From Sphingobacteriales bacterium (GTDB lineage Bacteria > Bacteroidota > Bacteroidia > Chitinophagales > Chitinophagaceae): a DNA stretch of 64,000 bases. The stretch spans positions 23,352 through 87,351 of the forward strand of contig JBKCVJ010000046.1 of the NCBI GenBank assembly GCA_046317915.1, given 5' to 3'. Made by a program: the position numbers and the translations under genes. Shown one piece after another: positions 4,043 to 54,305 of the stretch. The notes under the pieces were generated by a model. The model saw nothing but the letters and a program-made list of their open reading frames with translations. It was not told where the DNA came from and ran no database searches. The stretch's first letter is position 1, and each line of letters opens with the position of its first letter.

Positions 4043-5593
4043 TTATTTTTTCTGGTAGATGAAAGTATGCTGACTGCTGAACAAGTCTTTTTCATCATGT
4101 ATCAGCGTCAGTTCAGGTATGCTGTCTTTAAGGTCCGGAATTTTCCCGAGTTGCAGTACCAAAGTTTTTGGATGCTGGTCCAGAACCTGTTTCACTTCTG
4201 CAACTGCTGGCAACACAGGAATAGATTTTTGGTGATAATATACAAAGGCATCGTTCATGCGTTTGTAAGCCACCATGTCTGGTGCATCCCTAACCACGCC
4301 ACTGAGTTTTTTCACTGAGCCGGTTTGATCCAGCAATGGGAAAAGCCATGCAAAGAAAAGCATATTGAACAACATGCTGCCGCCGGCGAGCCAAAGCCAC
4401 CATTGTTCTGATTTTTTTTGACGATACAGGAACCAGGCGCCCACGGCAGCCATCGGCAAAATAAACACCATCCATATTTGTGGGAGCAGTTCTGGTAACT
4501 TATCGTTCTTCACCCAGATCACGAAACCAATTGGGAAAAGCAAGGTAATGATCCCAAGGATCAGAAGCTGGATATTCAGGGCTTTTGGCATTCGCAGCGT
4601 AGAAAGGTATGCGCCAATCAGGATGGCTACAAACGGATAAGCCGGACTCGTATAGTTGATCAACTTTGTACTGGAAAAAGAATAAGGGACGATGATAAAG
4701 ATTGTACTGAGCAACATAAAGAACAGAAAGGGCACCACGGCTTTTTTCTTCCATGCATCGATGCTCGCCATCGGCATAAAAACCGAAAACGGAAAGAGTC
4801 CTGCCAGTACAAAAACCAATGGAAGAAAGAAAGGCCCTTTATGTCCGTCTACCGCAGCATTGAATCTGCTCACATTGTGTTCAAAGAAAAAACCTCTTGT
4901 CCACGCACCATCGGTAGCCTCGTGTACCAACCAATACCATGGTAATGCAACAAGGGCAAAAATGAATATGCCGATGAGTGGCTGAAGGGAAACAATGGTT
5001 TTCCAGTTCAGTTCTCTACGGAATAACAGGAAGAAAAAAATGGTTGAACCTGGCAATGCCAGTCCCACCGGTCCTTTTGCAAAAACGGCCAGTCCCATCA
5101 TCGCATACATCGCATAATACCATCGTTTGTTTTTGGTAGCATACCCTTCCCAGAACGAAAACAATGCAAATACATGCGCCAGGATCAGGAAAGGATCGGG
5201 CGTAGCCAACCGAAACTGAAACAGGAAATGAACGGAGCTGAGCAACACCAATGCAGAAATAGTGGCAGCCTTTGTTGAAAAGTGGCGGCGTGTGATCCAC
5301 CATGTACCCAGCACAATGATGATTCCGGCTATGGCAGAGAAAAAGCGGGACGCGCCCTCCGACTTACCTGCAACACTGTAAGCCAGCATCATCATATAAT
5401 AATGTACAGGAGGTTTATCGGTCCTTAATTTGCCGTTGAACATTGGTACAATGCCATCACCAGCCAGCATTTCAGCGGCACATTGTGCGTTGCGGCCTTC
5501 GGCCACCTGAAAAACGGTTGTAGCGCCGAGCCTTATAAACAACAGCACTGCTGCTGCAATCAGGAGATACCAAAATGTGCGGGATGAAGCCAT
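4043..5593 (-). CDS. ArnT/PMT-family (GT83/GT39-like) lipid-linked sugar transferase
   Basis: EGRNAQCAAEM, DKPPVHY, FAKGPVG and KLINY motifs in a polytopic membrane protein; start moved to MASSRTFW (5593) because the longer ORF overlaps the upstream gene. Confidence 0.85.
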   Translation of the reverse strand: MASSRTFWYLLIAAAVLLFIRLGATTVFQVAEGRNAQCAAEMLAGDGIVPMFNGKLRTDKPPVHYYMMMLAYSVAGKSEGASRFFSAIAGIIIVLGTWWITRRHFSTKAATISALVLLSSVHFLFQFRLATPDPFLILAHVFALFSFWEGYATKNKRWYYAMYAMMGLAVFAKGPVGLALPGSTIFFFLLFRRELNWKTIVSLQPLIGIFIFALVALPWYWLVHEATDGAWTRGFFFEHNVSRFNAAVDGHKGPFFLPLVFVLAGLFPFSVFMPMASIDAWKKKAVVPFLFFMLLSTIFIIVPYSFSSTKLINYTSPAYPFVAILIGAYLSTLRMPKALNIQLLILGIITLLFPIGFVIWVKNDKLPELLPQIWMVFILPMAAVGAWFLYRQKKSEQWWLWLAGGSMLFNMLFFAWLFPLLDQTGSVKKLSGVVRDAPDMVAYKRMNDAFVYYHQKSIPVLPAVAEVKQVLDQHPKTLVLQLGKIPDLKDSIPELTLIHDEKDLFSSQHTFIYQKK

Positions 5594-5600
5594 ACAATTT

Positions 5601-6566
5601 TCAGTCTGCAAGATGGGTTTGGCCTTTTTTCCATTGTACGAAGTTGGCAATGCCTTTCTCCAAAGTCAATGAGGCCTCGTACCCTAATTCTTGTTTCGCT
5701 TTGCTTGTGTCCGCAAAGGTCTCTTTCACATCACCGGGCTGCTCGGGCAACCACTGGATCTGTGCTTTTTTGCCTGTCACTTTTTCAAGAGCCTGTACCA
5801 TCTCGAGCAATTGCACGGGCCTGCTACTGCCAATATTGAAAATGGTTTCCTTGCCCTCATAGGCCAGGGCGGTATAAAACCCTTTCACAATGTCAGAGAC
5901 ATAGGTGTAGTCGCGCCGGGTTTTTCCATCTCCAAACAAGGTGATGGGTTTGCCTTCGGTAATTTGCTGGTAGAATTTATGGATGGCGAGATCGGGCCGC
6001 TGGCGCGGACCAAACACCGTGAATAATCGCAAAGCAATGAATTGAATACCGTGAAGATGGCGATATACCTGGCCCATATCTTCAGCAGCCAGTTTGCTGG
6101 CAGCGTAAGGACTAATGGGCTTCAGATCGAAATCATCCTCAGACCATGGCACCCTTGGATTGTTCCCATACACACTGCTGGAAGAGGCAAACACAAATTT
6201 TCGGATGCGATTGATCCTGGCAAATTCAAGCAGGTTAAGGGTCCCCATTACATTGGTCTGGTAATAATCGTGAGCATTTTCAATACTCGGCCGCACACCT
6301 GCTTTTGCCGCCAGGTGGAAGATGGCATCGAAAGTGATTTTCCGGAACCGATAGGTCAACTCAGCAGCCTGTGTTGTGCGGATGTCCAGCTCATGAAAAT
6401 GAAAGGCGGGTTGTTCGCGACACCATTGCAGATTCAGGAGTTTCGCAACGGGGTCATAAAATGGATCGAGGTTATCGATACAATGCACCTCGTGGCCGTC
6501 TTTCAACAGCGTCTCCGCCAGATTACTTCCAATGAATCCGGCTCCGCCGGTCAACAGTATGGTCAT
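5601..6566 (-). CDS. NAD-dependent epimerase, UDP-glucuronate 4-epimerase-like SDR
   Basis: TGGAGFIGS, HLAAKAGVRPS, ASSSSVYG, SPYAASK (YxxxK), RLFTVFGPRQRPDLAIHKF, QPGDV. Confidence 0.85.
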   Translation of the reverse strand: MTILLTGGAGFIGSNLAETLLKDGHEVHCIDNLDPFYDPVAKLLNLQWCREQPAFHFHELDIRTTQAAELTYRFRKITFDAIFHLAAKAGVRPSIENAHDYYQTNVMGTLNLLEFARINRIRKFVFASSSSVYGNNPRVPWSEDDFDLKPISPYAASKLAAEDMGQVYRHLHGIQFIALRLFTVFGPRQRPDLAIHKFYQQITEGKPITLFGDGKTRRDYTYVSDIVKGFYTALAYEGKETIFNIGSSRPVQLLEMVQALEKVTGKKAQIQWLPEQPGDVKETFADTSKAKQELGYEASLTLEKGIANFVQWKKGQTHLAD

Positions 6567-6605
6567 GTTGGTTTGAAAGGGTGAAGGTATGAAAGTTCAG
6601 AGGAT

Positions 6606-6613
6606 TACCTTTG
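6606..6613 (+). promoter_or_regulatory. Bacteroidota -7 promoter box TAnnTTTG (TACCTTTG)
   Basis: Exact consensus match 4 nt before the ATG at 6618, implying an essentially leaderless mRNA. Confidence 0.65.
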
Positions 6614-6617
6614 TGCC

Positions 6618-7229
6618 ATGGGAAGTTTTCAAATAGATGTATCCCACGGCCTTAGTGAGATTGAACAGGCGTGTTGGGAGATGATGGAAAATGCATCAAA
6701 GAACAGACACGCAGGTATGCACCATATGGTAGTGGGTACCGTACGGGAGGGCAAGCCGGAGATCAGAACGGTAATACTAAGAGGTGTGAACAGGGAAGAG
6801 CAGCGTGTCTATTTTCACACAGACAGCCGGAAGGAAATGTTCACGGATATGTCATCCGGTGAACCCATCAGTTTGTTGGTGTACGACCAGCAACTGCGTT
6901 CACAGATCAGGATGAAAGGGCATGCTGTAGTTCATCATATGGATGAACTTTGTAAGCAGAGATGGGCGAAAACCGCAGATTACAGCAGGAGGAGTTACCT
7001 TCAGCCGGGTGTGCCCGGGTTGCCCGCGGAGTCACCGGAATTGCCAGACAATCTGCGTGATTTTTCATATACCCTTGAAGAAAGTGAAGTGGGTTTCAAC
7101 AATTTCGTGGTCATGGAGTGCGTGATAGATAATATGGACTGGTATTTTGCGCATCACCAGGGGAACCGGCGTGCCAACTTTGTGTATGAGGGACAGGCGC
7201 TTTCTTATTCCGGTTGGCTGCACTCCTGA
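6618..7229 (+). CDS. Pyridoxamine 5'-phosphate oxidase-family FMN-binding protein
   Basis: PEIRTVILRG, FHTDSRK, QIRMKG and C-terminal R-x-x-F...W motifs. Confidence 0.8.
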   Translation: MGSFQIDVSHGLSEIEQACWEMMENASKNRHAGMHHMVVGTVREGKPEIRTVILRGVNREEQRVYFHTDSRKEMFTDMSSGEPISLLVYDQQLRSQIRMKGHAVVHHMDELCKQRWAKTADYSRRSYLQPGVPGLPAESPELPDNLRDFSYTLEESEVGFNNFVVMECVIDNMDWYFAHHQGNRRANFVYEGQALSYSGWLHS

Positions 7230-9789: not shown

Positions 9790-9796
9790 CGATGCA

Positions 9797-9836
9797 CATT
9801 GCCGCATTACCGCACTGCCACATTGCCAAATTGACT
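9797..9836. repeat. Octamer tandem array (MATTRYCN)x5
   Basis: cattgccg cattaccg cactgcca cattgcca aattgact. Confidence 0.85.
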
Positions 9837-9839
9837 GAG

Positions 9840-9911
9840 TGGTCCCGTCAGGAATCGAACCTGAATCCAGGGCTTCGGAGACCCTTATACTATCCATTGT
9901 ACTACGGGACC
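9840..9911 (-). tRNA. tRNA-Arg(CCG), CCA not encoded
   Basis: Reverse complement GGTCCCGTAGTACAATGGATAGTATAAGGGTCTCCGAAGCCCTGGATTCAGGTTCGATTCCTGACGGGACCA folds as a cloverleaf with TTCGATT T-loop and CTCCGAA anticodon loop. Confidence 0.95.
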
Positions 9912-10556: not shown

Positions 10557-10564
10557 CAAAGATA
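10557..10564 (-). promoter_or_regulatory. Bacteroidota -7 box (TATCTTTG) for the marC-family gene
   Basis: Exact consensus 4 nt upstream of the ATG at 10552. Confidence 0.65.
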
Positions 10565-10565
10565 A

Positions 10566-10629
10566 GGTGGAAGTTGGTAGGTGGAAGGTGGAGGTACTTT
10601 CTTCCACCTTCCAACTTCCAACTTCCGCC
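10566..10629. repeat. Inverted pair of (GGTGGAA)x4 heptamer arrays forming a ~28-bp hairpin
   Basis: ggtggaa gttggta ggtggaa ggtggag - gtactttc - ttccacc ttccaac ttccaac ttccgcc. Confidence 0.85.
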
Positions 10630-18463: not shown

Positions 18464-18540
18464 TATTGGTTATTCGTTATTAGTTATTGGTTAATTTGAA
18501 GCCGTTTTAACCACCCATAACTATTAACGAATAACCAATA
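18464..18540. repeat. Inverted pair of (TATTVGT)n heptamer arrays, ~31-bp stem
   Basis: tattggttattcgttattagttattggttaa ... ttaaccacccataactattaacgaataaccaata. Confidence 0.8.
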
Positions 18541-18547
18541 ACTTTTT

Positions 18548-24309: not shown

Positions 24310-25074
24310 ATGGCTGAGGCAAACAAGTCAGTGAAAAAGATTCTGATTACCCAACCCCGTCCCGAGTCTGATAAGTCGCCCTATTTCGAGCTGGCTAAGC
24401 GGTATGCCGTGGAGATGGAATTCTTCCCTTTCATCCGGCTTGAGCCCATCCCCTGCAAAGAATTCAGGAAGCAGAAAATAGAGATCGCCGAGTATTCATC
24501 GGTGATTTTCACCAGCCGCAATGCTATAGACCATTTCTTCCGTATCTGCGAAGAAATGAAGCTGAACATTTCGCAGGACACTAAATATTTCTGCATCACC
24601 GAAGCGGTGGCGCTTTACCTGCAGAAGTTCATCCTATACAGAAAACGAAAGGTTTTTTATGGTGCCGATGGTACCAACAAGAGCCTGTTTGACGTGATGA
24701 ACAAGCACAAGGAAAACGAGAAGTTTCTCTATCCCTGTTCCGAAAACCAGCAGGACAATGAGATCGTGAACTGGCTGAAGAACAATAAATGTGAATTCCA
24801 GACGCCATTCATGTACCGTACCATCAGCAATGATGCCAGCAAGCTGGAAGCGCACAATTTTGACGTGATCTGTTTCTTTACGCCCAGTGGTGTAAGGAGC
24901 CTTTTTGATAATTTCCCCGCCTATACCCAGAACGGAACCTTCATCGGAGCCTTCGGCAGCAATACCTCCAAAGCCATACAGGAAGCGGGTTTACAGCTGC
25001 ACATCAAAGCCCCCGAACCGCAAGTGCCATCTATGATTGCGGCATTGGAGAAGTTCCTGGCAACGAAAAAGTAA
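24310..25074 (+). CDS. hemD: Uroporphyrinogen-III synthase-like protein (HemD family)
   Basis: KILITQP, VIFTSRNAIDHFF, YRTISND, FFTPSGVRS; function assigned from fold only. Confidence 0.75.
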   Translation: MAEANKSVKKILITQPRPESDKSPYFELAKRYAVEMEFFPFIRLEPIPCKEFRKQKIEIAEYSSVIFTSRNAIDHFFRICEEMKLNISQDTKYFCITEAVALYLQKFILYRKRKVFYGADGTNKSLFDVMNKHKENEKFLYPCSENQQDNEIVNWLKNNKCEFQTPFMYRTISNDASKLEAHNFDVICFFTPSGVRSLFDNFPAYTQNGTFIGAFGSNTSKAIQEAGLQLHIKAPEPQVPSMIAALEKFLATKK

Positions 25075-25171
25075 AAAATTAAAAAGTAAAAATTAAAAAG
25101 CTATTGCAAAGAACTATACCTGGAACAACCTGTTAAGGTTTTTTACTTTTTACTTTTGAATTTTTACTTTT
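25066..25171. repeat. Inverted pair of (AAAAAGT)n/(TTTTTAC)n heptamer arrays with ~38-nt spacer
   Basis: aaaaagt aaaaaatt aaaaagt aaaaatt aaaaagc ... tttttac tttttac ttttgaa tttttac tttt; spans from the hemD stop to the next ATG. Confidence 0.75.
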
Positions 25172-31207: not shown

Positions 31208-32248
31208 ATGAAATTCCAATTGGCAAAATATGTTTTACTAGTGACTGCGTTCGGTCTCGCTACGCAGGTGGTTGATGCGCAAACGCGTAAGAAAACCACC
31301 AGGTCCAAGACCAGCACGTCCAAGAAAACATCGACCAAGAACACTCAATCCAATACGGCCAATGCCAATTTGAATGCAAAGGCTGCCGATACAGTAGTTC
31401 CCGTTGCTAAGCTCGATCCTCTGGCTATTGATACGCCCAAAAAATCCCTCCGCAATGACGCGGCAGTGGAAAGGAACCTCGTGAAAGACAGGACTCCTCT
31501 CGCGCATGAGAACATCCGCGAAGACGATGCCTGGTACCGCGAGCGCGTATGGAGGGAGATCGATATCCGCGAAAAAATGAACCTTCCTTTCCGTTATAAG
31601 GCAGATGAGGATAATGGTAACCAACGTTTCATTATCATTCTGCTGAATGCACTCCGCTCTGGTGAAGTGACGGCCTTCGATCCCACCGTGGACGATCGTT
31701 TCACTACACCGATGACACTGGAGAAGATCGGTGAAATGATCGCTGGAAAATGCGATACCACCCAGATCCCGGATTTCGTAAAAGATCCTAACGGTACCAA
31801 AGGTATTTTCAAAGACACGATGGTATGTGCCGTGTTCAATCCTGATGATATCACTAAATTCAGGATTAAGGAAGAATGGGTATTTGATAAGGAAAGTTCC
31901 AGGATGTATGCACGTATTCTGGGTATTGCCCCGATTAAAACCTATGTTGATCAAAGTACTGGAGCTATACTCGGTGAATCTCCCATATTCTGGGTATACT
32001 ACCCTGATCTCAGGCCTACTCTTGCTAAGTACGAAGTGTACAATGGTAAGAACTTCGGTGCCCGGATGAGCTGGGAAGAGCTTTTCGAAAGCCGCTATTT
32101 CAGCAGCTATATCGTAAAGTCTACCATTGAAAATCCTTACGACATGTACATCAAGCAGTATATTAAGGATGATATCCTGAAGTTGCTGGAAGGTGAGAAC
32201 ATTAAAGAAAGGATCTTCAACTTTGAACAAGACCTGTGGTCATACTAG
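31208..32248 (+). CDS. gldN: T9SS/gliding protein GldN (PorN)
   Basis: RVWREIDIREKMNLPF, IKEEWVFDK, RILGIAP, FNFEQDLWSY. Confidence 0.95.
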   Translation: MKFQLAKYVLLVTAFGLATQVVDAQTRKKTTRSKTSTSKKTSTKNTQSNTANANLNAKAADTVVPVAKLDPLAIDTPKKSLRNDAAVERNLVKDRTPLAHENIREDDAWYRERVWREIDIREKMNLPFRYKADEDNGNQRFIIILLNALRSGEVTAFDPTVDDRFTTPMTLEKIGEMIAGKCDTTQIPDFVKDPNGTKGIFKDTMVCAVFNPDDITKFRIKEEWVFDKESSRMYARILGIAPIKTYVDQSTGAILGESPIFWVYYPDLRPTLAKYEVYNGKNFGARMSWEELFESRYFSSYIVKSTIENPYDMYIKQYIKDDILKLLEGENIKERIFNFEQDLWSY

Positions 32249-32317
32249 ACTAAATAGCATAAAAAAAGCCCCCGCTTCCAGCGGGGGCTTTTTTTATGCT
32301 ATTTAGTCTAGTATGAC
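32239..32317. terminator. Bidirectional intrinsic terminator embedded in a perfect 37-bp inverted repeat
   Basis: Core A7-GCCCCCGC-TTCCA-GCGGGGGC-T7 (32261-32295); perfect complementarity continues outward to 32239/32317. Confidence 0.92.
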
Positions 32318-32354
32318 AATTTGCCAATTAGTCAATGCGGTAATGCGGCAATTG
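32315..32354. repeat. Octamer array x5 (reverse orientation) upstream of the four-helix-bundle gene
   Basis: gacaattt gccaatta gtcaatgc ggtaatgc ggcaattg. Confidence 0.8.
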
Positions 32355-32428
32355 TTCCGCGTATTTTCTGCCTTTTTTCTGTTGCAAATACTGAGCTGAC
32401 GGGTTATACGCCAGGCTAGATTGCAGGG

Positions 32429-32785
32429 ATGGAGAATAATATCATTTTGAATAAGTCAGTTTCATTTTCAGGTGAAGTGATTCGTTTTGCGAGGGAGATA
32501 CCTGTTGATTGTAGAACCATAGCTAGTCAACTAGTAAGATCAGGGACTTCAATTGGTGCGAGTATAGCAGAAGCCCAGGGTGCAGAGAGCACAATAGACT
32601 TTGTGCACAAGTTGAAGATCGCTGATAAGGAAGCCAGAGAAACTGAGTATTGGCTGAACTTACTTAGCAATACAGAAAGAGGAGTGGATCAAACTAAACT
32701 AAGAGAGGATCTAAGAGAAATACAAAGGTTATTAAATGCCATTATTGGTACTTGCAAACGAAAACTAAAAAAGAAAGCAGGTTGA
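32429..32785 (+). CDS. Four helix bundle protein (TIGR02436 / 23S rRNA intervening-sequence protein family)
   Basis: QLVRSGTSIGASIAEAQGAES..DFVHKLKIADKEARETEYWL. Confidence 0.92.
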   Translation: MENNIILNKSVSFSGEVIRFAREIPVDCRTIASQLVRSGTSIGASIAEAQGAESTIDFVHKLKIADKEARETEYWLNLLSNTERGVDQTKLREDLREIQRLLNAIIGTCKRKLKKKAG

Positions 32786-32791
32786 TGTATT

Positions 32792-32827
32792 CATTGCCAC
32801 ATTGTCTAATTTTCTAATTGGCCAATT
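32792..32827. repeat. Octamer array (forward orientation) downstream of the four-helix-bundle gene
   Basis: cattgcca cattgtct aattttct aattggcc aatt. Confidence 0.8.
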
Positions 32828-32867
32828 AAAAAAAATGGGGCTTGGATAGAAATCCTGCCCCGTTTTT
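32828..32867. terminator. Bidirectional intrinsic terminator
   Basis: A8-TGGGGC...GGAT-AGAA-ATCC...GCCCCG-T5. Confidence 0.7.
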
Positions 32868-33004
32868 AAAATCCAATATCCTATGAAAAACCGAAGTAAA
32901 GATACAAACTAGACCAATACAACCATACTCCCCGGGCATATTATTTGTACCATTCGTCCGGAATATCTGGACTTTCATCGAAATGAATCAGGCGTATACC
33001 CGCA

Positions 33005-34822
33005 TTAGGGGCTTTGGGTGGATTTGGCGTCAAAATATGACCTAACCAGTTTGGCTTTTGCCAGGCCGATACTCTCGGTCAAGGTTTCCTCGGAGGCTAC
33101 CATGACGTTTTTTACCGATCTGAATCGTTTAAGCAGTAGATCTGCAGTGGATTTGCCAATGCCTTTGATGTCTTCTAACTCATTCTTAAAAGTGCCTTTG
33201 GCCCTTTTTTGCCGGTGGAAAGTAATGCCAAAACGATGCACCTCGTCCCGGATAAACCGTAGCAAATTCAAGCTGGTGCTGCCGTAAGGCAGTTTAAGCG
33301 ACTCCTGGTCGCCGGCAAAAAATACTTCTTCCACGTTCTTGGCTAACCCTACCAGCGTCATTTGTCCGTTGAGACCCAGTTCCTCAATGCCCTCCAAAGC
33401 GGCACTGAGCTGCCCTTTGCCGCCATCAATGATCACCAGTTGGGGCAAGGGTTGTTGCTCCGTGGTCAGCCGCTGGTAACGGCGCATGACCACCTCTTTC
33501 ATGGTGGCAAAATCATTGATCCCCACTACGGTTTTCACATTGTAATGCCTGTAGTCTTTCTTACTGGGCTTGCCGTTCCGGAAACATACCATCGCACTCA
33601 CCGGATAACTTCCCTGGAAATTTGAGTTGTCGAAACACTCAATATGCTCCGGCAACTCCTGCAGGTTTAGGTCTTCCTGCAGCTGCAAAAGGGTATCGCC
33701 CATATCCTTCTCTTCATCAGACAACATCAGCGCCAGCTGCCGTTTTTCCTCCTTCCGGAAGAACTGAACATTTGTCTCAGACATTTCCAACAGGTTTTTT
33801 TTGTCGCCGGATTTTGGAACGGTAACCACTACATGTTCATCTGGGTATTCTATGGCAAATGGAACAATGATCTCAGGGGCCGTACTTCCAAACACTTCCC
33901 TGAAATGCATCAGTGCCAGCACCAATACTTCATCTTCTGTCTCCTCCATCTGCCGTTTCACTGGGATGGTTTTTGTATCTACGATGGCACCATTGCGCAT
34001 CATCAGGAAGTTCACATAAACATGGTCACCTTCCGTAGCGATGGTGCACACATCGATATCACCCCATTTCGGATTGATGACAATGGATTTGGCCTGGTAT
34101 TGCTGCAGGTGGTCAAGTTTCTTTCGCAGTATTTCTGCTTTTTCAAAACGCATTTCCTGCGCATACTCCTTCATCTCCTGTCTGAAATGCTGGATCACCG
34201 GGTTGAGGTTACCCTTCAGTAAGTTTCGGATCTGCATCAGCCCATCGGCATAATCCTCTTCTGTTTGCAGGCCTTCGCAAGGACCCTTACAATTACCGAG
34301 GTGATACTCCAGGCAGACTTTGTATTTTCCTTTTCTGATGTTTGCCGGTGAAAGATTCAGTTTGCAGGTTCGGAGGGTAATGTTCTGCCGGATGAATTCC
34401 AACAGTTCCCGCACTTTCTTGACGGAAGTGAAGGGACCGAGATATTCTGAGCCATCCTGGATCATCCTGCGCGTAAAAAAAATGCGTGGAAAATGCTCAT
34501 GCTTGATGACCAGGTAGGGATAGGTTTTGTCGTCTTTCAGGTTGATGTTGAACCTTGGCTGAAATTGTTTGATCAATGAGTTCTCCAACAGGAAAGCATC
34601 CTGCTCTGAATGCACGATCGTGAACTCTATATGGTGGATCCGTTGAACAAGTTCATGGGTCTTATAGCTCGTGAAGGTTTTCGTGAAATAAGAAGACACG
34701 CGTTTGCGGATATTCTTCGCCTTACCCACGTAAAGAAGCTCGTTCTTTTCGTCGAAGTATTTATAAATACCCGGCTCAGTAGGCAGGCCGGGTGCTATGC
34801 TGCTGAATATCGTACTCGTCAT
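33005..34822 (-). CDS. uvrC: Excinuclease ABC subunit C
   Basis: GIY-YIG (PGIYKY, LYVGKAKNIRKRV), FNINLKDDKTYP, IECFDNSN, DGGKGQL, RDEVHRFGITFHR, HhH; start moved to MTSTIFSS. Confidence 0.95.
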   Translation of the reverse strand: MTSTIFSSIAPGLPTEPGIYKYFDEKNELLYVGKAKNIRKRVSSYFTKTFTSYKTHELVQRIHHIEFTIVHSEQDAFLLENSLIKQFQPRFNINLKDDKTYPYLVIKHEHFPRIFFTRRMIQDGSEYLGPFTSVKKVRELLEFIRQNITLRTCKLNLSPANIRKGKYKVCLEYHLGNCKGPCEGLQTEEDYADGLMQIRNLLKGNLNPVIQHFRQEMKEYAQEMRFEKAEILRKKLDHLQQYQAKSIVINPKWGDIDVCTIATEGDHVYVNFLMMRNGAIVDTKTIPVKRQMEETEDEVLVLALMHFREVFGSTAPEIIVPFAIEYPDEHVVVTVPKSGDKKNLLEMSETNVQFFRKEEKRQLALMLSDEEKDMGDTLLQLQEDLNLQELPEHIECFDNSNFQGSYPVSAMVCFRNGKPSKKDYRHYNVKTVVGINDFATMKEVVMRRYQRLTTEQQPLPQLVIIDGGKGQLSAALEGIEELGLNGQMTLVGLAKNVEEVFFAGDQESLKLPYGSTSLNLLRFIRDEVHRFGITFHRQKRAKGTFKNELEDIKGIGKSTADLLLKRFRSVKNVMVASEETLTESIGLAKAKLVRSYFDAKSTQSP

Positions 34823-34845
34823 GGTATCCTTGCGTATTGGAAAAC

Positions 34846-35397
34846 TTATTCCATCCCCCACATATATTTCACAGTGCTGTTTGCTTCCTTGCCTTTATGG
34901 CCCGTCATCGTGATCACCTGTAAACTCTTTCCAGCAGTCCAGACCATTCTGGTATTAACGGTGGAATCATTGCGTTGCTCAAGTTTTTCCACGTAGATCG
35001 ACCGAAGTTTGCTGGTTTCCTGGCGGATCAGCACATCAATTTTCCGCACCACCGGTTTGTCGGATTCAGTAGTGTAGCTCATGGTAAGGAAGTCTGAGCT
35101 ATTATCATAAAACACGGTTTCCTTGTAGAAATTTTTTAACTCAGGACTGCCGATATCTGGTGTGATCATTTGTTTGGCCATGGCAGCTAATTCTTCCTTG
35201 CTGGCTGTAGTGGTGTCTGTTTTATCATTAATGGTCGTGTATTTATTTACGCCAAGCGGTAATGAATCCAGCTCCTTAAGATCGGCATTGATGTTTCCTG
35301 CAATGGGAAAAAAGCTGACATCTTTATTGTCATAGGTTTTATCATTCTTGCAGGCAAAAAAACAAATGCAAAGGAATACTGCCAAGGATTTTTTCAT
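34846..35397 (-). CDS. Hypothetical lipoprotein
   Basis: MKKSLAVFLCICFFAC lipobox; no recognised domain. Confidence 0.7.
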   Translation of the reverse strand: MKKSLAVFLCICFFACKNDKTYDNKDVSFFPIAGNINADLKELDSLPLGVNKYTTINDKTDTTTASKEELAAMAKQMITPDIGSPELKNFYKETVFYDNSSDFLTMSYTTESDKPVVRKIDVLIRQETSKLRSIYVEKLEQRNDSTVNTRMVWTAGKSLQVITMTGHKGKEANSTVKYMWGME

Positions 35398-42984: not shown

Positions 42985-43842
42985 ATGCTTTCATTTGACC
43001 AGGCACTTGAACAACTTGTTGCTGCAGCCATCATAGAAGATGTTGGCGACGGCGATCACTCCACGCTTAGTACCATCGCTCCTGATGCAAGGGGCAAAGC
43101 CATTTTAAAAATAAAGGATGAAGGTATTCTCGCAGGCGTAGCCGTAGCGGAGAAAATTTTTCATATGCTGGAGCCTGGCTCCGTGCTGCACATCTATCGA
43201 AAGGATGGTGATGTGATGGTTAAGGGCGATATCGCTTTTGAGGTGTCCGCATCTATACATACCATCTTGAAAGGGGAACGCCTTGTCCTGAATATTATGC
43301 AGCGTATGAGTGGCATTGCCACGCTGACGCGGCAGTATACGGACAAGTTGAAAGGATATCACACCCGCGTATTGGACACACGAAAAACCACACCCAATTT
43401 CCGATTGCTGGAAAAAGAAGCTGTACGTATCGGGGGAGGTATCAACCATCGTTTTGGACTGTATAATATGATCATGCTTAAAGACAACCATATTGATTAT
43501 TGCGGCGGTTTGACGAAAGCGATCAACCTTGCGCATGAGTATGTACAAGAAGTGAAGCCCGGATTGAAAATAGAAGTAGAGACCAGATCTTTAGACGATG
43601 TGGCTACAGTTGTGCAGATGGGGAAAGGCAAGGTGTTTCGGATCATGCTGGATAATTTTACACCGGAGAAAATAAGTGAAGCCTTACAGCTGATCAATGG
43701 ACAGTTTGAAACCGAAGCCAGTGGCGGCATCAATCTCGAAAATATTGAAGCCTATGCTGCAACCGGAGTGGACTATGTTTCTGTTGGGGCACTGATTCAC
43801 CAGGCAAGAAGCCTGGACCTGAGCCTGAAAGCTCAGGTCTAA
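42985..43842 (+). CDS. nadC: Nicotinate-nucleotide diphosphorylase (carboxylating), quinolinate phosphoribosyltransferase
   Basis: ERLVLNIMQRMSGIAT, DTRKTTP, HRFGL, IMLDN, EASGG. Confidence 0.96.
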   Translation: MLSFDQALEQLVAAAIIEDVGDGDHSTLSTIAPDARGKAILKIKDEGILAGVAVAEKIFHMLEPGSVLHIYRKDGDVMVKGDIAFEVSASIHTILKGERLVLNIMQRMSGIATLTRQYTDKLKGYHTRVLDTRKTTPNFRLLEKEAVRIGGGINHRFGLYNMIMLKDNHIDYCGGLTKAINLAHEYVQEVKPGLKIEVETRSLDDVATVVQMGKGKVFRIMLDNFTPEKISEALQLINGQFETEASGGINLENIEAYAATGVDYVSVGALIHQARSLDLSLKAQV

Positions 43843-43876
43843 TGCGTCAATTTGATAATGCGGCAATGCGGTAATT
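43838..43876. repeat. Octamer array x5 (reverse orientation) filling the nadC-SUI1 gap
   Basis: tctaatgc gtcaattt gataatgc ggcaatgc ggtaatt, followed directly by ATG. Confidence 0.8.
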
Positions 43877-44212
43877 ATGAGCAAGAAGAATAAAGCAGAC
43901 AAAAGCGGATTCGTGTTTAGCACAGATCCTACTTTTCAGTTTGAACATGAAGCACAGGAAGAGCAGGAGACCCTGCCTCCGGAGAAACAGAAACTCCGGA
44001 TCATGCTGGATAAAAAGCAACGTGCCGGTAAGGCAGTGACACTCGTCACGGGGTTTGTTGGAAAGCCTGATGATCTGGAAGAACTCGGTAAAAAAGCCAA
44101 GCAATTTTGCGGTACCGGTGGGTCTGTGAAAGATGGTGAGATCATTATCCAAGGAGATCAGCGGGAGAAGGTGCGGCAGTTTCTGATCAAGATGAAATAT
44201 ACACTGCTCTAG
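43877..44212 (+). CDS. Translation initiation factor SUI1/YciH family
   Basis: RAGKAVTLVTGF, CGTGGSVKDGEIIIQGD. Confidence 0.92.
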   Translation: MSKKNKADKSGFVFSTDPTFQFEHEAQEEQETLPPEKQKLRIMLDKKQRAGKAVTLVTGFVGKPDDLEELGKKAKQFCGTGGSVKDGEIIIQGDQREKVRQFLIKMKYTLL

Positions 44213-44329
44213 CAATTGACAATTGGCAATTGACAATTAACAATTGGCACTAGTCTTTGGATATCTAAAGATTAGTCTCTAATTACCAGTGCCAATTGCT
44301 AATTATTAATTGCCAATTGTCAATTGCTA
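44210..44329. repeat. REP/MITE-like element: 45-bp inverted arms of six heptamers (TRRCAAT x5, TGGCACT) plus RGT; 30-nt spacer
   Basis: Arms 44210-44254 and 44285-44329, 41/45 complementary; lies between convergent SUI1 and icd. Confidence 0.88.
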
Positions 44330-44332
44330 ACC

Positions 44333-46390: not shown

Positions 46391-47482
46391 ATGGCCTACA
46401 AAGTAAGTTTTAACAACAGCAACCGTGTATTTTTCAACACTTTAAAGACGGCTGTTGACGAGTATTTCGAGAAAAATAATCTCCGGAAAACAGGCAACTA
46501 TAAGCTTTACGTAAAAACCACCACGTTGATCGTTTCAACGCTGGCGATTTACCTAAGTGTATTGTTTCTTCCCATGCCCGGGTGGGTGGCCATCTTGCTG
46601 AGTGCCGGTTTCGGCCTGTGCATGGCTTTCATTGGTTTCAATGTTATGCATGACGCCAACCACGGCAGTTTTTCCTCACGGAAATGGGTCAACGAAGTTT
46701 TTGGGTTGACGCTCAATTTCATTGGCGGTAATGCTTTTTTGTGGAAGCTGAAGCATAACATCGTTCACCACACCTATACCAATATTGACGGGGTGGATGA
46801 TGACATCAACAATATGCCGTTTATGCGCGAAGCGCCTACACAACCCTGGAAGCCCATGCACCGTTACCAGGGGTACTACATGTTCATGTTATACGGATTC
46901 ACTTCGCTGTTCATGTGGATCTCAGACTTTATCAAATATTTTTCGAAGAAAGTATACACCACGGAATTGAAGCCGATGGATGTGAAGGAGCATATGATCT
47001 TCTGGATCACCAAGGCCGCTTATGTGGTATTGTATGTGGTGATTCCGATCCTGGTTCTCGGTTGGAAGCCCTGGCTGATCGGATTTGCTGTGATGCATTT
47101 TGTACTCGGTCTCACCATCGCCATTGTGTTCCAGTTGGCACACGTAGTGGAGCATGCGGAGTTTTCTGTTGCGGGCGTGGAGCCTGTCAAAATTGAGAAC
47201 GAGTGGGCCATCCACCAGATCAAGACAACCGCCAATTTCGCGGCTGGGAATAAGCTCGTTACCTGGTGCCTTGGTGGATTGAATTTCCAGATTGAACACC
47301 ATCTTTTCCCGAGGGTCAGCCATATTCACTATCCGGCTATCAGCAAAATTGTGAAAGATACCTGCGAGCAATTTAAGCTCAGATATAACTACTTTCCAAC
47401 CATGGGAGAAGCTGTGTATTCCCACTTTAAGATCATGGATCAACTTGGAAGAAATAACCAAGAACTAGCAATTAACAATTAG
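46391..47482 (+). CDS. Membrane acyl-CoA/fatty acid desaturase
   Basis: His boxes MHDANHGS, HNIVHHTYTN, QIEHHLFP. Confidence 0.92.
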   Translation: MAYKVSFNNSNRVFFNTLKTAVDEYFEKNNLRKTGNYKLYVKTTTLIVSTLAIYLSVLFLPMPGWVAILLSAGFGLCMAFIGFNVMHDANHGSFSSRKWVNEVFGLTLNFIGGNAFLWKLKHNIVHHTYTNIDGVDDDINNMPFMREAPTQPWKPMHRYQGYYMFMLYGFTSLFMWISDFIKYFSKKVYTTELKPMDVKEHMIFWITKAAYVVLYVVIPILVLGWKPWLIGFAVMHFVLGLTIAIVFQLAHVVEHAEFSVAGVEPVKIENEWAIHQIKTTANFAAGNKLVTWCLGGLNFQIEHHLFPRVSHIHYPAISKIVKDTCEQFKLRYNYFPTMGEAVYSHFKIMDQLGRNNQELAINN

Positions 47483-47597
47483 CAATTAACAATTGGCAAT
47501 TGGCACTGGTTTTTGGAAGGTAGATTTTGGTGAGCGTCACTAACTTCCAACAACCAGTGCTAATTGCTAACTGTTAATTGCTAATTGTCAATTGTTA
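47466..47597. repeat. Second REP/MITE-like element with 45-bp heptamer arms; 42-nt spacer
   Basis: Arms 47466-47510 and 47553-47597 with the same (TRRCAAT)5-TRGCACT-GGT layout; lies between convergent desaturase and gldB. Confidence 0.88.
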
Positions 47598-54264: not shown

Positions 54265-54265
54265 G

Positions 54266-54305
54266 CATTGCCGCATTACCGCATTGCCAAATTGTCTAAT
54301 TTCCA
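54266..54305. repeat. Octamer array x5 filling the batA-rsgA gap
   Basis: cattgccg cattaccg cattgcca aattgtct aatttcca. Confidence 0.85.

Follow-up and report, generated by a model that had tools for sequence, protein, structure and literature searches.

Genes of the PF05635 four-helix-bundle family are normally housed between two inverted tandem arrays of short repeats, and this holds across phyla as well as on phage contigs. The gene analyzed here lies between gldN and uvrC in the window, that is, the whole 64-kb stretch of DNA under analysis, and is bracketed by an array of G-rich 8-mers and a complementary C-rich array. We propose, with moderate confidence, that it is a four-helix-bundle cassette of the IVS type that occupies an intergenic spacer rather than 23S rRNA. 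The family-wide bracketing of PF05635 genes by inverted arrays is apparently unreported, and the cassette, as read from its sequence, would be an element of the intervening-sequence (IVS) type outside rRNA that has tandem arrays for arms.

The '23S rRNA IVS protein/four helix bundle' family is widespread, counts structural-genomics targets among its members and has a relative in the DGR protein Avd. ORFs of this family (S23p/PF05635) are carried by the 23S rRNA intervening sequences of Leptospira and Coxiella burnetii. Knowledge of heptamer tandem repeats goes back to 1990 in cyanobacteria and was later extended to Xanthomonas, Beggiatoaceae and Bacteroidota. Both the gene family and its occurrence in the stems of rRNA IVSs are therefore already known, as are the heptamer arrays of these bacteria. 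In the non-subscription full-text literature, a connection between PF05635 genes and tandem arrays at their flanks appeared in no paper apart from a single observation in Coxiella, and no paper stated that XCC0516, a crystallised homologue from Xanthomonas, has the Xanthomonas repeat on its flanks.

The cassette between gldN and uvrC

An earlier note on this DNA had described a five-unit array upstream of the ORF and a reverse-complement array downstream of it, and had placed the whole in the interval from the gldN terminator to the 3' end of uvrC. Both the arrays and their position were confirmed (Table 1). The upstream array reads ACAATTTG CCAATTAG TCAATGCG GTAATGCG GCAATTG, whereas the downstream array, which starts 7 bases past the ORF stop, is its reverse-complement counterpart, CATTGCCA CATTGTCT AATTTTCT AATTGGCC AATT. 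The inverted arms span 35 nt and are 77% complementary, with 27 Watson-Crick and 2 G:U pairs. Their ungapped pairing score of 19 was reached by 0 of 1000 shuffles and, among 654 positions of the same geometry in the window, by this locus alone. The note had also called the ORF compositionally foreign, and this holds only mildly, its GC content being 0.35-0.42 against 0.467 for the window.

Table 1. Features of the gldN-uvrC locus and related arrays in the window
Feature	Position	Strand	Description
Solo array, cassette's 8-mer family (CCGCATTG type)	9795-9833		after acyltransferase gene, abuts tRNA-Arg
gldN	31208-32248	+	stop codon within 38+38-nt palindrome
Palindrome with gldN intrinsic terminator	32239-32317		perfect 38+38 nt, 100% complementary
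Upstream array	32316-32352	+	TRF period 8; five 8-nt units NAATGYGN, G-rich version
Leader	32353-32428	+	76 nt between upstream array and ATG; conserved along with the arrays
Four-helix-bundle protein gene	32429-32785	+	118 aa, PF05635/TIGR02436
Downstream array	32793-32827	+	TRF; about 4.5 reverse-complement, C-rich 8-mer units; pairs with 32318-32352
Conserved element of about 75 nt	32828-32905	-	terminator hairpin plus T8; bounds the cassette toward uvrC
uvrC	33005-34861	-	3' end faces the cassette
Solo array, cassette's 8-mer family (CAATGCGG type)	43840-43875		between nadC and SUI1-family gene
ORF-less inverted-array hairpin	44210-44330		7-mer CAATTGN arms, 45-nt loop, between convergent genes
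Second ORF-less CAATTGN hairpin	47466-47597		inner core GGCACTrGT...ACCAGTGC in common with the 44210 hairpin
Solo array, cassette's 8-mer family	54265-54300		between VWA/BatA gene and rsgA

The upstream array starts at the right foot of the palindrome that contains the gldN terminator. The core of this palindrome is a G+C-rich terminator hairpin flanked by A- and T-runs, its left arm includes the final gldN codons and the stop (GTCATACTAG), and it was scored as a bidirectional terminator. Among the related loci (numbered with the prefix L), the two arms of the palindrome co-vary in L081, L002, L086, L088 and L090, and the palindrome is missing at empty sites. By alignment, the upstream array is retained in L001, L081, L002 and L161. 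The leader contains a TAGATTGCAGG box immediately 5' of the ATG. On the uvrC side, the conserved element that follows the downstream array was found in the Chitinophagaceae loci inspected and is inverted between occupied and empty sites; it is context and lies outside the cassette. A multicopy repeat was considered for positions 32840-32930, which show tenfold depth in DNA metagenome contigs, and was set aside, since the depth is better accounted for by the element being conserved among Chitinophagaceae species.

The genes around the cassette encode GldM, GldN and UvrC, together with an unannotated 183-aa ORF. A search of positions 32100-33100 at a permissive threshold placed no Rfam family over the arrays or the conserved element and returned only sub-threshold terminator look-alikes. 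No rRNA match was present in the same interval, the cassette being located between gldN and uvrC and outside any 23S rRNA helix. PADLOC gave no meaningful match to a defence system. RNA from this organism was represented by one short metatranscriptome contig (32644-32815), too sparse for mapping ends. The cassette forms a separate 601-nt unitig and many of its homologues lie at contig ends; such arrays break short-read assemblies.

The four-helix-bundle protein

The ORF had been taken for a four-helix-bundle gene from its sequence alone, and this identity was borne out by its matches to PF05635 (E 1.7e-20, 73.6 bits, cut-off 33.8) and TIGR02436 (E 6e-25, 87.5 bits, cut-off 24). PF05635 was the sole Pfam match above the curated cut-off and NCBIfam contributed only TIGR02436. 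The helix-2/helix-3 motif that marks these families (G..R...S...N..E type) was found in the protein, and 16 diverse homologues show little or no variation in the motifs SGTSIGA..E (RSGTSIGASIAE) and KEARETEYW. No paralogue was detected among the window ORFs with phmmer, which leaves one PF05635 gene in the window.

The closest solved structure is 2RLD (E 9e-20), a five-chain entry. The entry for XCC0516, 2GSC, also has five chains and matches the query profile only at E 7e-4. These two matches suggest that the product would be a pentameric four-helix-bundle ring. The profile search of solved structures (E <= 1) did not retrieve 4DWL, the structure of Avd.

The bracket across the gene family

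Eighty homologue loci with 37-89% identity were fetched, 74 of them usable, from Bacteroidota, Cyanobacteria, Ignavibacteriota, Cloacimonadota, Spirochaetia, candidate phyla, Bacillota, Nitrospirae and others. A gene was counted as bracketed when the inverted complementarity between the 150 nt upstream and the 150 nt downstream of it exceeded the 99th percentile of shuffles. In the clade of the query, 53 of the 74 loci (72%) have the bracket, whereas among 202 genes that neighbour them in these loci the share is 6% (Mann-Whitney p 1e-18); the control values for this clade were 9% for cross-locus pairings and 19% for the direct orientation. The bracket was also found in 49 of 78 loci of a distant clade, queried with the XCC0516 sequence recovered from a PDB alignment, and in 10 of 16 loci on IMG/VR viral contigs. 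The expectation that arrays accompany other genes of the family was thus upheld across phyla. Overall, about two thirds of the 168 homologue loci, which cover the two distant clades and the viral contigs and more than 15 phyla, are bracketed and about one third lack a clear bracket.

The arrays differ in sequence and share a common format. Examples are AATTGAG x4 with CTCAATT x5 in a Porphyromonadaceae MAG, GAAGTCG x8 with CGACTTC x7 in Nostoc, and AATTGAC with GTCAATT in a Bacillota MAG. The unit period was 7 in 100 of 107 arrays of the first set, so that the 8-mers of the window are a minority form. Median copy number was 4.4 in both sets and the median arm measured 30-33 nt. At least 33 unit families occur among the homologue loci. 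The upstream consensus unit is the reverse complement of the downstream unit, with at most one mismatch, in 50 of 66 loci, against 6% under random pairing. Judged from these sequences, the two arms of a locus covary, and they do so in whole units. The arrays frequently abut the start codon of the four-helix-bundle gene.

The pairs also have a polarity. In the first set, the G-rich, purine-rich unit forms the 5' arm in 42 loci and the 3' arm in 12; the corresponding numbers for the second set are 51 and 4. Since an inverted pair is identical when read on either strand, the polarity is a property of the pair and not of gene orientation, and the rule is one of convergent G-rich strands. By base count of the sequences, the same polarity is present in the three ORF-less hairpins of the window that have unequal G and C.

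Dispersed arrays and hairpins without an ORF

In the 64-kb window, TRF located 17 arrays whose period is 7 or 8; they have 3.7-5.7 copies and represent at least 6 unit families. Those placed on the ORF map are intergenic or extend a few bases into the end of a gene; the window therefore contains what characterizes the STRR/LSSR repeats, intergenic arrays of 7-8-nt units with several families per genome. Per 10 kb, the window has 2.7 arrays and the gldN regions of other Chitinophagaceae have about 0.02, the gldN-uvrC site being excluded and the regions compared not being equivalent. The array family of the cassette had been supposed to recur elsewhere, and it does so at three further sites of the window (9795, 43840 and 54265), so that a gene flanked by an inverted, genome-dispersed repeat, as in REPIN-RAYT systems, is found here. 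Among the homologues, 8 of 49 loci have additional arrays of the cassette's own unit at other positions; control tests gave 2 of 245.

Five ORF-less inverted pairs occur in the window, and the loops of these hairpins range from a few to about 50 nt. The hairpin at 44210-44330 looks like an empty counterpart of the cassette design. On the evidence of their common inner core, this hairpin and the one at 47466-47597 are homologous elements.

In Xanthomonas, the orthologues of XCC0516 lie between accB and accC and are flanked by GGGAATC/GATTCCC. PMC4692102 reports 186 arrays of the GGGAATC heptamer per X. campestris genome, with 70 pairs convergent. Among loci collected with the pattern CAATTRR, 112 of 120 arrays are solo and 4 of 120 adjoin a four-helix-bundle gene. 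The arrays are thus a wider phenomenon, since most CAATTRR arrays stand alone and away from such genes, and it is the inverted bracket, rather than arrays as such, that marks the four-helix-bundle genes. One inverted pair brackets a response-regulator gene (L203).

History of the gldN-uvrC site

Among the 80 gldN loci fetched, the convergent order of gldN and then uvrC is kept through much of Chitinophagaceae. Cassettes were found only in the nearest clade of the family, at 82% identity or more. The other loci, about 70 in which GldN identity is about 80% or lower, mostly have gldN-uvrC spacers of about 50-400 nt without a four-helix-bundle gene; a few have no uvrC nearby, a gap of about 2 kb or a contig edge. 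Arrays are absent from the gldN-uvrC spacers of the ten distant loci that were fully inspected (L091-L100). The earlier note had offered the gene as a candidate non-autonomous mobile or excisable cassette. That it is an inserted cassette is supported by the empty sites in most of the distant loci. Its mobility or excision found no such support: no target-site duplication or direct repeat was found at the array boundaries, the window holds no second copy, and excised or empty forms and excision joints were absent from four metagenomes, which is weak evidence as these were DNA contigs only.

The occupants of the site differ in orientation and state. The gene is on the same strand in L001, L081 and L002 (89, 78 and 72% identity) and in L090 (56%), and on the opposite, minus strand in L086, L088 and L089 (47-51%) and in L087 (58%), where about 1 kb of longer tandem repeats is also inserted. 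L085 retains the arrays with only a C-terminal remnant of the gene (E 4e-17). All occupants share the MENNII N-terminus and related NAATGYGN 8-mer arrays, and their protein distances track the host distances, which points to one ancestral insertion followed by inversion, rapid divergence and decay. Independent insertions, suggested by the opposite orientations and the 47-58% identities, were rejected on these same three grounds. The history is probably better explained by a single ancestral insertion, with inversion through the inverted arms, than by repeated insertion.

Between the window and L001 the gene shows a dN/dS of 0.095 and a dS of 0.61, against 0.47 for uvrC; with dS so close to that of uvrC, vertical descent under purifying selection is indicated. 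The comparison with L081 gave a different picture. Flanks, arrays and leader are 82-98% identical (leader 86-90%; arrays and leader 82-90%), whereas the ORF body is only 52-76% identical and saturated at synonymous sites (pS 0.89, compared with a dS of 0.36 for gldN). The boundaries of identity are sharp and fall near the ORF start and stop. The ORF body has thus been exchanged inside conserved arrays in the window/L081 pair, the only pair among the occupants that requires such an exchange.

The predicted stem and the RNA evidence

The closing helix between the arms is present in both the MFE and the centroid fold, and a stem of terminal inverted repeats is accordingly predicted around the ORF, as in the IVSs. 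Compared with shuffles, the fold of the whole transcript showed no significant gain in stability (z -1.17). Mismatches in the arms were G:U versus A:C in proportions of 60:61 and 47:70 in the two sets; with no excess of G:U over A:C, selection for pairing of the sense RNA is not visible. The earlier suggestion that the arms pair into a stem stands as far as both predicted folds go; fold stability and the mismatches tell against it.

Contigs from Xanthomonas RNA runs cover accB, the four-helix-bundle gene and accC in one piece, so both arms can share one RNA, although such runs may contain DNA. At gldN-uvrC, a strong terminator lies immediately upstream of the 5' arm, and for this reason the 5' arm may be off the mRNA. 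Many cassettes occupy tight intra-operon spacers (accB-accC, rfbB-rfbA), a placement that fits a design looping the insert out of the host transcript.

Comparison with known systems

In Coxiella, the IVS stem is 28 bp long; 3-4 GACAGAT heptamers in tandem make up its 5' half, the first of them being the site of RNase III cleavage (PMC4990558). The cassette resembles the 23S rRNA IVSs in having a homologous ORF in the loop of a stem of terminal inverted repeats, predicted in the case of the cassette, and in the length of the arm, 28 bp in Coxiella and about 30-35 in the cassette. It differs in lying between the protein-coding genes gldN and uvrC, with 8-nt units, whereas the IVSs are placed in an rRNA helix, and in that its ORF is under purifying selection while the Coxiella ORF is decaying. 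Concerning Avd, this protein belongs to the four-helix-bundle superfamily, forms a pentameric ring and binds nucleic acid with a partner enzyme (PMC10053308). The cassette protein falls in the same superfamily, but no reverse transcriptase or template/variable repeat lies beside the cassette.

The cyanobacterial STRR, the GGGAATC of Xanthomonas, the GGGGAYT of Nostoc and the TAACTGA of Beggiatoaceae are intergenic tandem arrays of 7-nt units; such heptamer arrays are lineage-specific, with several families per genome and some convergent inverted pairs (PMC4692102, PMC4679880). A tie of these arrays to PF05635 genes was not found in the passages of PMC4692102 and PMC4679880 that were searched. 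The window, with its intergenic period-7/8 arrays of several families, is similar to these genomes. The difference is that the cassette arrays bracket a PF05635 gene, as GGGAATC flanks XCC0516.

REPIN-RAYT systems combine REP hairpins scattered through a genome with a cognate gene that they flank. They share with the cassette a single gene flanked by an inverted short repeat that is also dispersed as solo copies and hairpins. However, the cassette gene encodes a small helical protein without an HUH/Y1 transposase domain, and its repeats are tandem arrays whereas REPs are unique palindromes.

Proposed explanation and alternatives

An IVS-type cassette in an intergenic spacer would have the order G-rich tandem array, short leader, PF05635 ORF and complementary C-rich array. 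When both arms are on one transcript, they would form a stem of about 30-35 bp that sets the ORF apart in an RNA domain of its own, and this stem may be cut by RNase III, by analogy with the rRNA intervening sequences of the same design. Such a stem would make the insert tolerable between genes or within operons. The inverted arms could also provide the homology for inversion and exchange of the ORF. Finally, the putative pentamer may read the repeat units, about one per subunit, on its own flanks and in the dispersed arrays; this idea comes from the 4-5 copies per array, from 2RLD and 2GSC having five chains each, and from the agreement between flanking and dispersed units.

Much more tentatively, PF05635 pentamers might be the missing trans-acting partner of the bacterial heptamer arrays (STRR/LSSR, GGGAATC, TAACTGA). 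In this scheme, one 7-8-nt unit would be read by each subunit, the inverted pair with the gene would act as the master copy, and solo arrays and ORF-less hairpins would be targets or derivatives, in a RAYT-REPIN-like or TRAP-like manner. A master copy of this kind would account for the 4-5 copies, for a flanking unit that equals the dominant family of the genome and for the conserved polarity.

The order of events may have been the reverse, with the hairpin first and the ORF as a lodger. Array hairpins of the host would be bidirectional terminators or RNA punctuation, PF05635 ORFs would have spread among their loops by recombination through the arms, and the arrays would belong to the genome and not to the cassette. 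This is consistent with the ORF-less hairpins of the window, which have equal copy number and in three of five cases the same polarity, with the 70 convergent array pairs in Xanthomonas (PMC4692102), with an arm unit equal to the genome's own dispersed family, and with an ORF body exchanged while arrays and leader were conserved. However, no gldN-uvrC relative has arrays without the ORF or a remnant of it and the empty sites inspected are array-free. Ready-made hairpins are also a minority, since 112 of the 120 sampled arrays are solo, and mismatched arms of 30-35 nt make poor substrates for recombination. We therefore regard this order of events as possible but doubtful.

Rather less probable is that the arrays are cis-regulatory operators, sites for autoregulation by the four-helix-bundle protein or for another factor, at the DNA or RNA level, with mobility and stem being irrelevant. 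The tight copy number of 4-5 units suits a pentamer, the frequent contact of arrays with the start codon suits an operator, and the gene is under purifying selection. But operators leave unexplained the reverse-complement array downstream in 76% of loci, the homologous ORF in rRNA stems cut by RNase III, and the presence/absence polymorphism of the whole unit.

A classical transposon with terminal inverted repeats, or a MITE-like element, served in trans by a transposase from elsewhere, is improbable. Inverted termini, sporadic distribution, copies on phage contigs and an intergenic site that is empty in relatives are what such an element would show. However, neither target-site duplications at the array boundaries nor excision joints in the four metagenomes were seen; moreover, the number and sequence of arm units differ between close relatives, the window has a single copy, and the 33 or more arm families would need as many transposase specificities. 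Slippage-generated simple repeats lying beside the gene by coincidence, an idea to which the 17 intergenic 7/8-mer arrays in 64 kb lend some colour, have practically nothing left in their favour, being refuted by the bracket in 72% of homologues versus 6% of neighbours, by arms matching in 50 of 66 loci versus 6% at random, and by replication of the bracket in the distant clade and the viral contigs.

Significance

The association described here would join two old puzzles into one question, the function of the four-helix-bundle family and the origin and role of the heptamer arrays. As cassettes also sit inside essential operons such as accB-accC, the design of the stem may show how an insert becomes harmless to the transcript that carries it.

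Structures around the cassette at the gldN-uvrC site

In the window, the gldN terminator is enclosed by a perfect palindrome of 38+38 nucleotides, whose left arm takes in the final gldN codons and the stop codon. The right arm mirrors the synonymous differences among relatives, the corresponding pairs being GTCATACTAG/CTAGTATGAC in the window and, in two relatives' loci, GTCGTATTAA/TTAATACGAC (L088) and GTCATATTAG/CTAATATGAC (L090). This palindromic extension at the terminator is missing from empty gldN-uvrC sites. On the uvrC side, a conserved element of about 75 nucleotides was found across the Chitinophagaceae in the gldN-uvrC spacers that were read. It matched no Rfam family and lies in opposite orientation in cassette-bearing versus empty loci; it may encode a small RNA or serve as a terminator module acting in both directions.

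The spacer of another relative, L087, is enlarged to 2.4 kb. There, longer tandem-repeat blocks with units of roughly 60 and 120 nucleotides (4640-5500 and 6330-6690) flank the four-helix-bundle (4HB) gene on both sides, internal to the 8-mer arrays. The cassette contig of a further relative, L002, opens (1-75) with a mirrored, slightly divergent array copy lying left of a 'gldN stop', and the real gldN of this MAG terminates a separate contig (L083) within the palindrome. The mirrored array is probably an assembly fold-back, and to the same probable cause we attribute the position of many homologue loci at contig ends.

Array-associated features in the window
Feature	Position	Strand	Composition
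Solo 8-mer array and tRNA-Arg(CCG)	9795-9911		array of 4.9 copies
ORF-less array hairpin	10564-10626
ORF-less array hairpin	18464-18542
ORF-less array hairpin	25066-25171
gldN terminator palindrome	32239-32317
Conserved ~75-nt element	32828-32905	minus	TATCTTTAC box, then GGTTTTTCATAGGATATTGGATTTTAAAAAC, hairpin, T8
SUI1/YciH-family region	43840-44330
SUI1/YciH-family gene	43877-44212
ORF-less array hairpin	44210-44330		CAATTGN arms
ORF-less array hairpin	47466-47597		CAATTGN arms

Homologous cassettes at other loci

PF05635 cassettes are housed in conserved operons (L282-L290, L292-L297 and L304, loci of the XCC0516 clade). Throughout the Xanthomonadaceae they lie in the accB-accC gap, and several Beta- and Gammaproteobacteria carry them either in the rfbB-rfbA gap or ahead of rfbD. 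The Gracilibacteria 4HB homologue (L048:2857-3219) shows two in-frame stops under table 11 translation, which are probably TGA codons read as glycine (code 25). Arrays of GAGAATG/CATTCTC are still present at this homologue.

Arrays around other genes

Five hairpins without an ORF, with inverted 7-mer arrays as arms, occupy intergenic spacers of the window. Their arm units are GGTGGAA, TATTGGT, AAAAAGT and, twice, CAATTGN; the two CAATTGN hairpins have a common inner core and, by appearance, belong to a single family of elements. An 8-mer CAATGCGG array lies immediately 5' of the ATG of a SUI1/YciH-family gene whose stop codon is the start of a CAATTGN hairpin, so that this gene is bracketed by unlike arrays. 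The solo 8-mer array stops six bases short of tRNA-Arg(CCG), which is encoded on the opposite strand. In L203, a locus found by its CAATTRR array pattern, inverted CAATTRR arrays at 1725-2303 bracket a 137-aa response-regulator receiver gene, so 4HB genes are not alone in carrying the array bracket.
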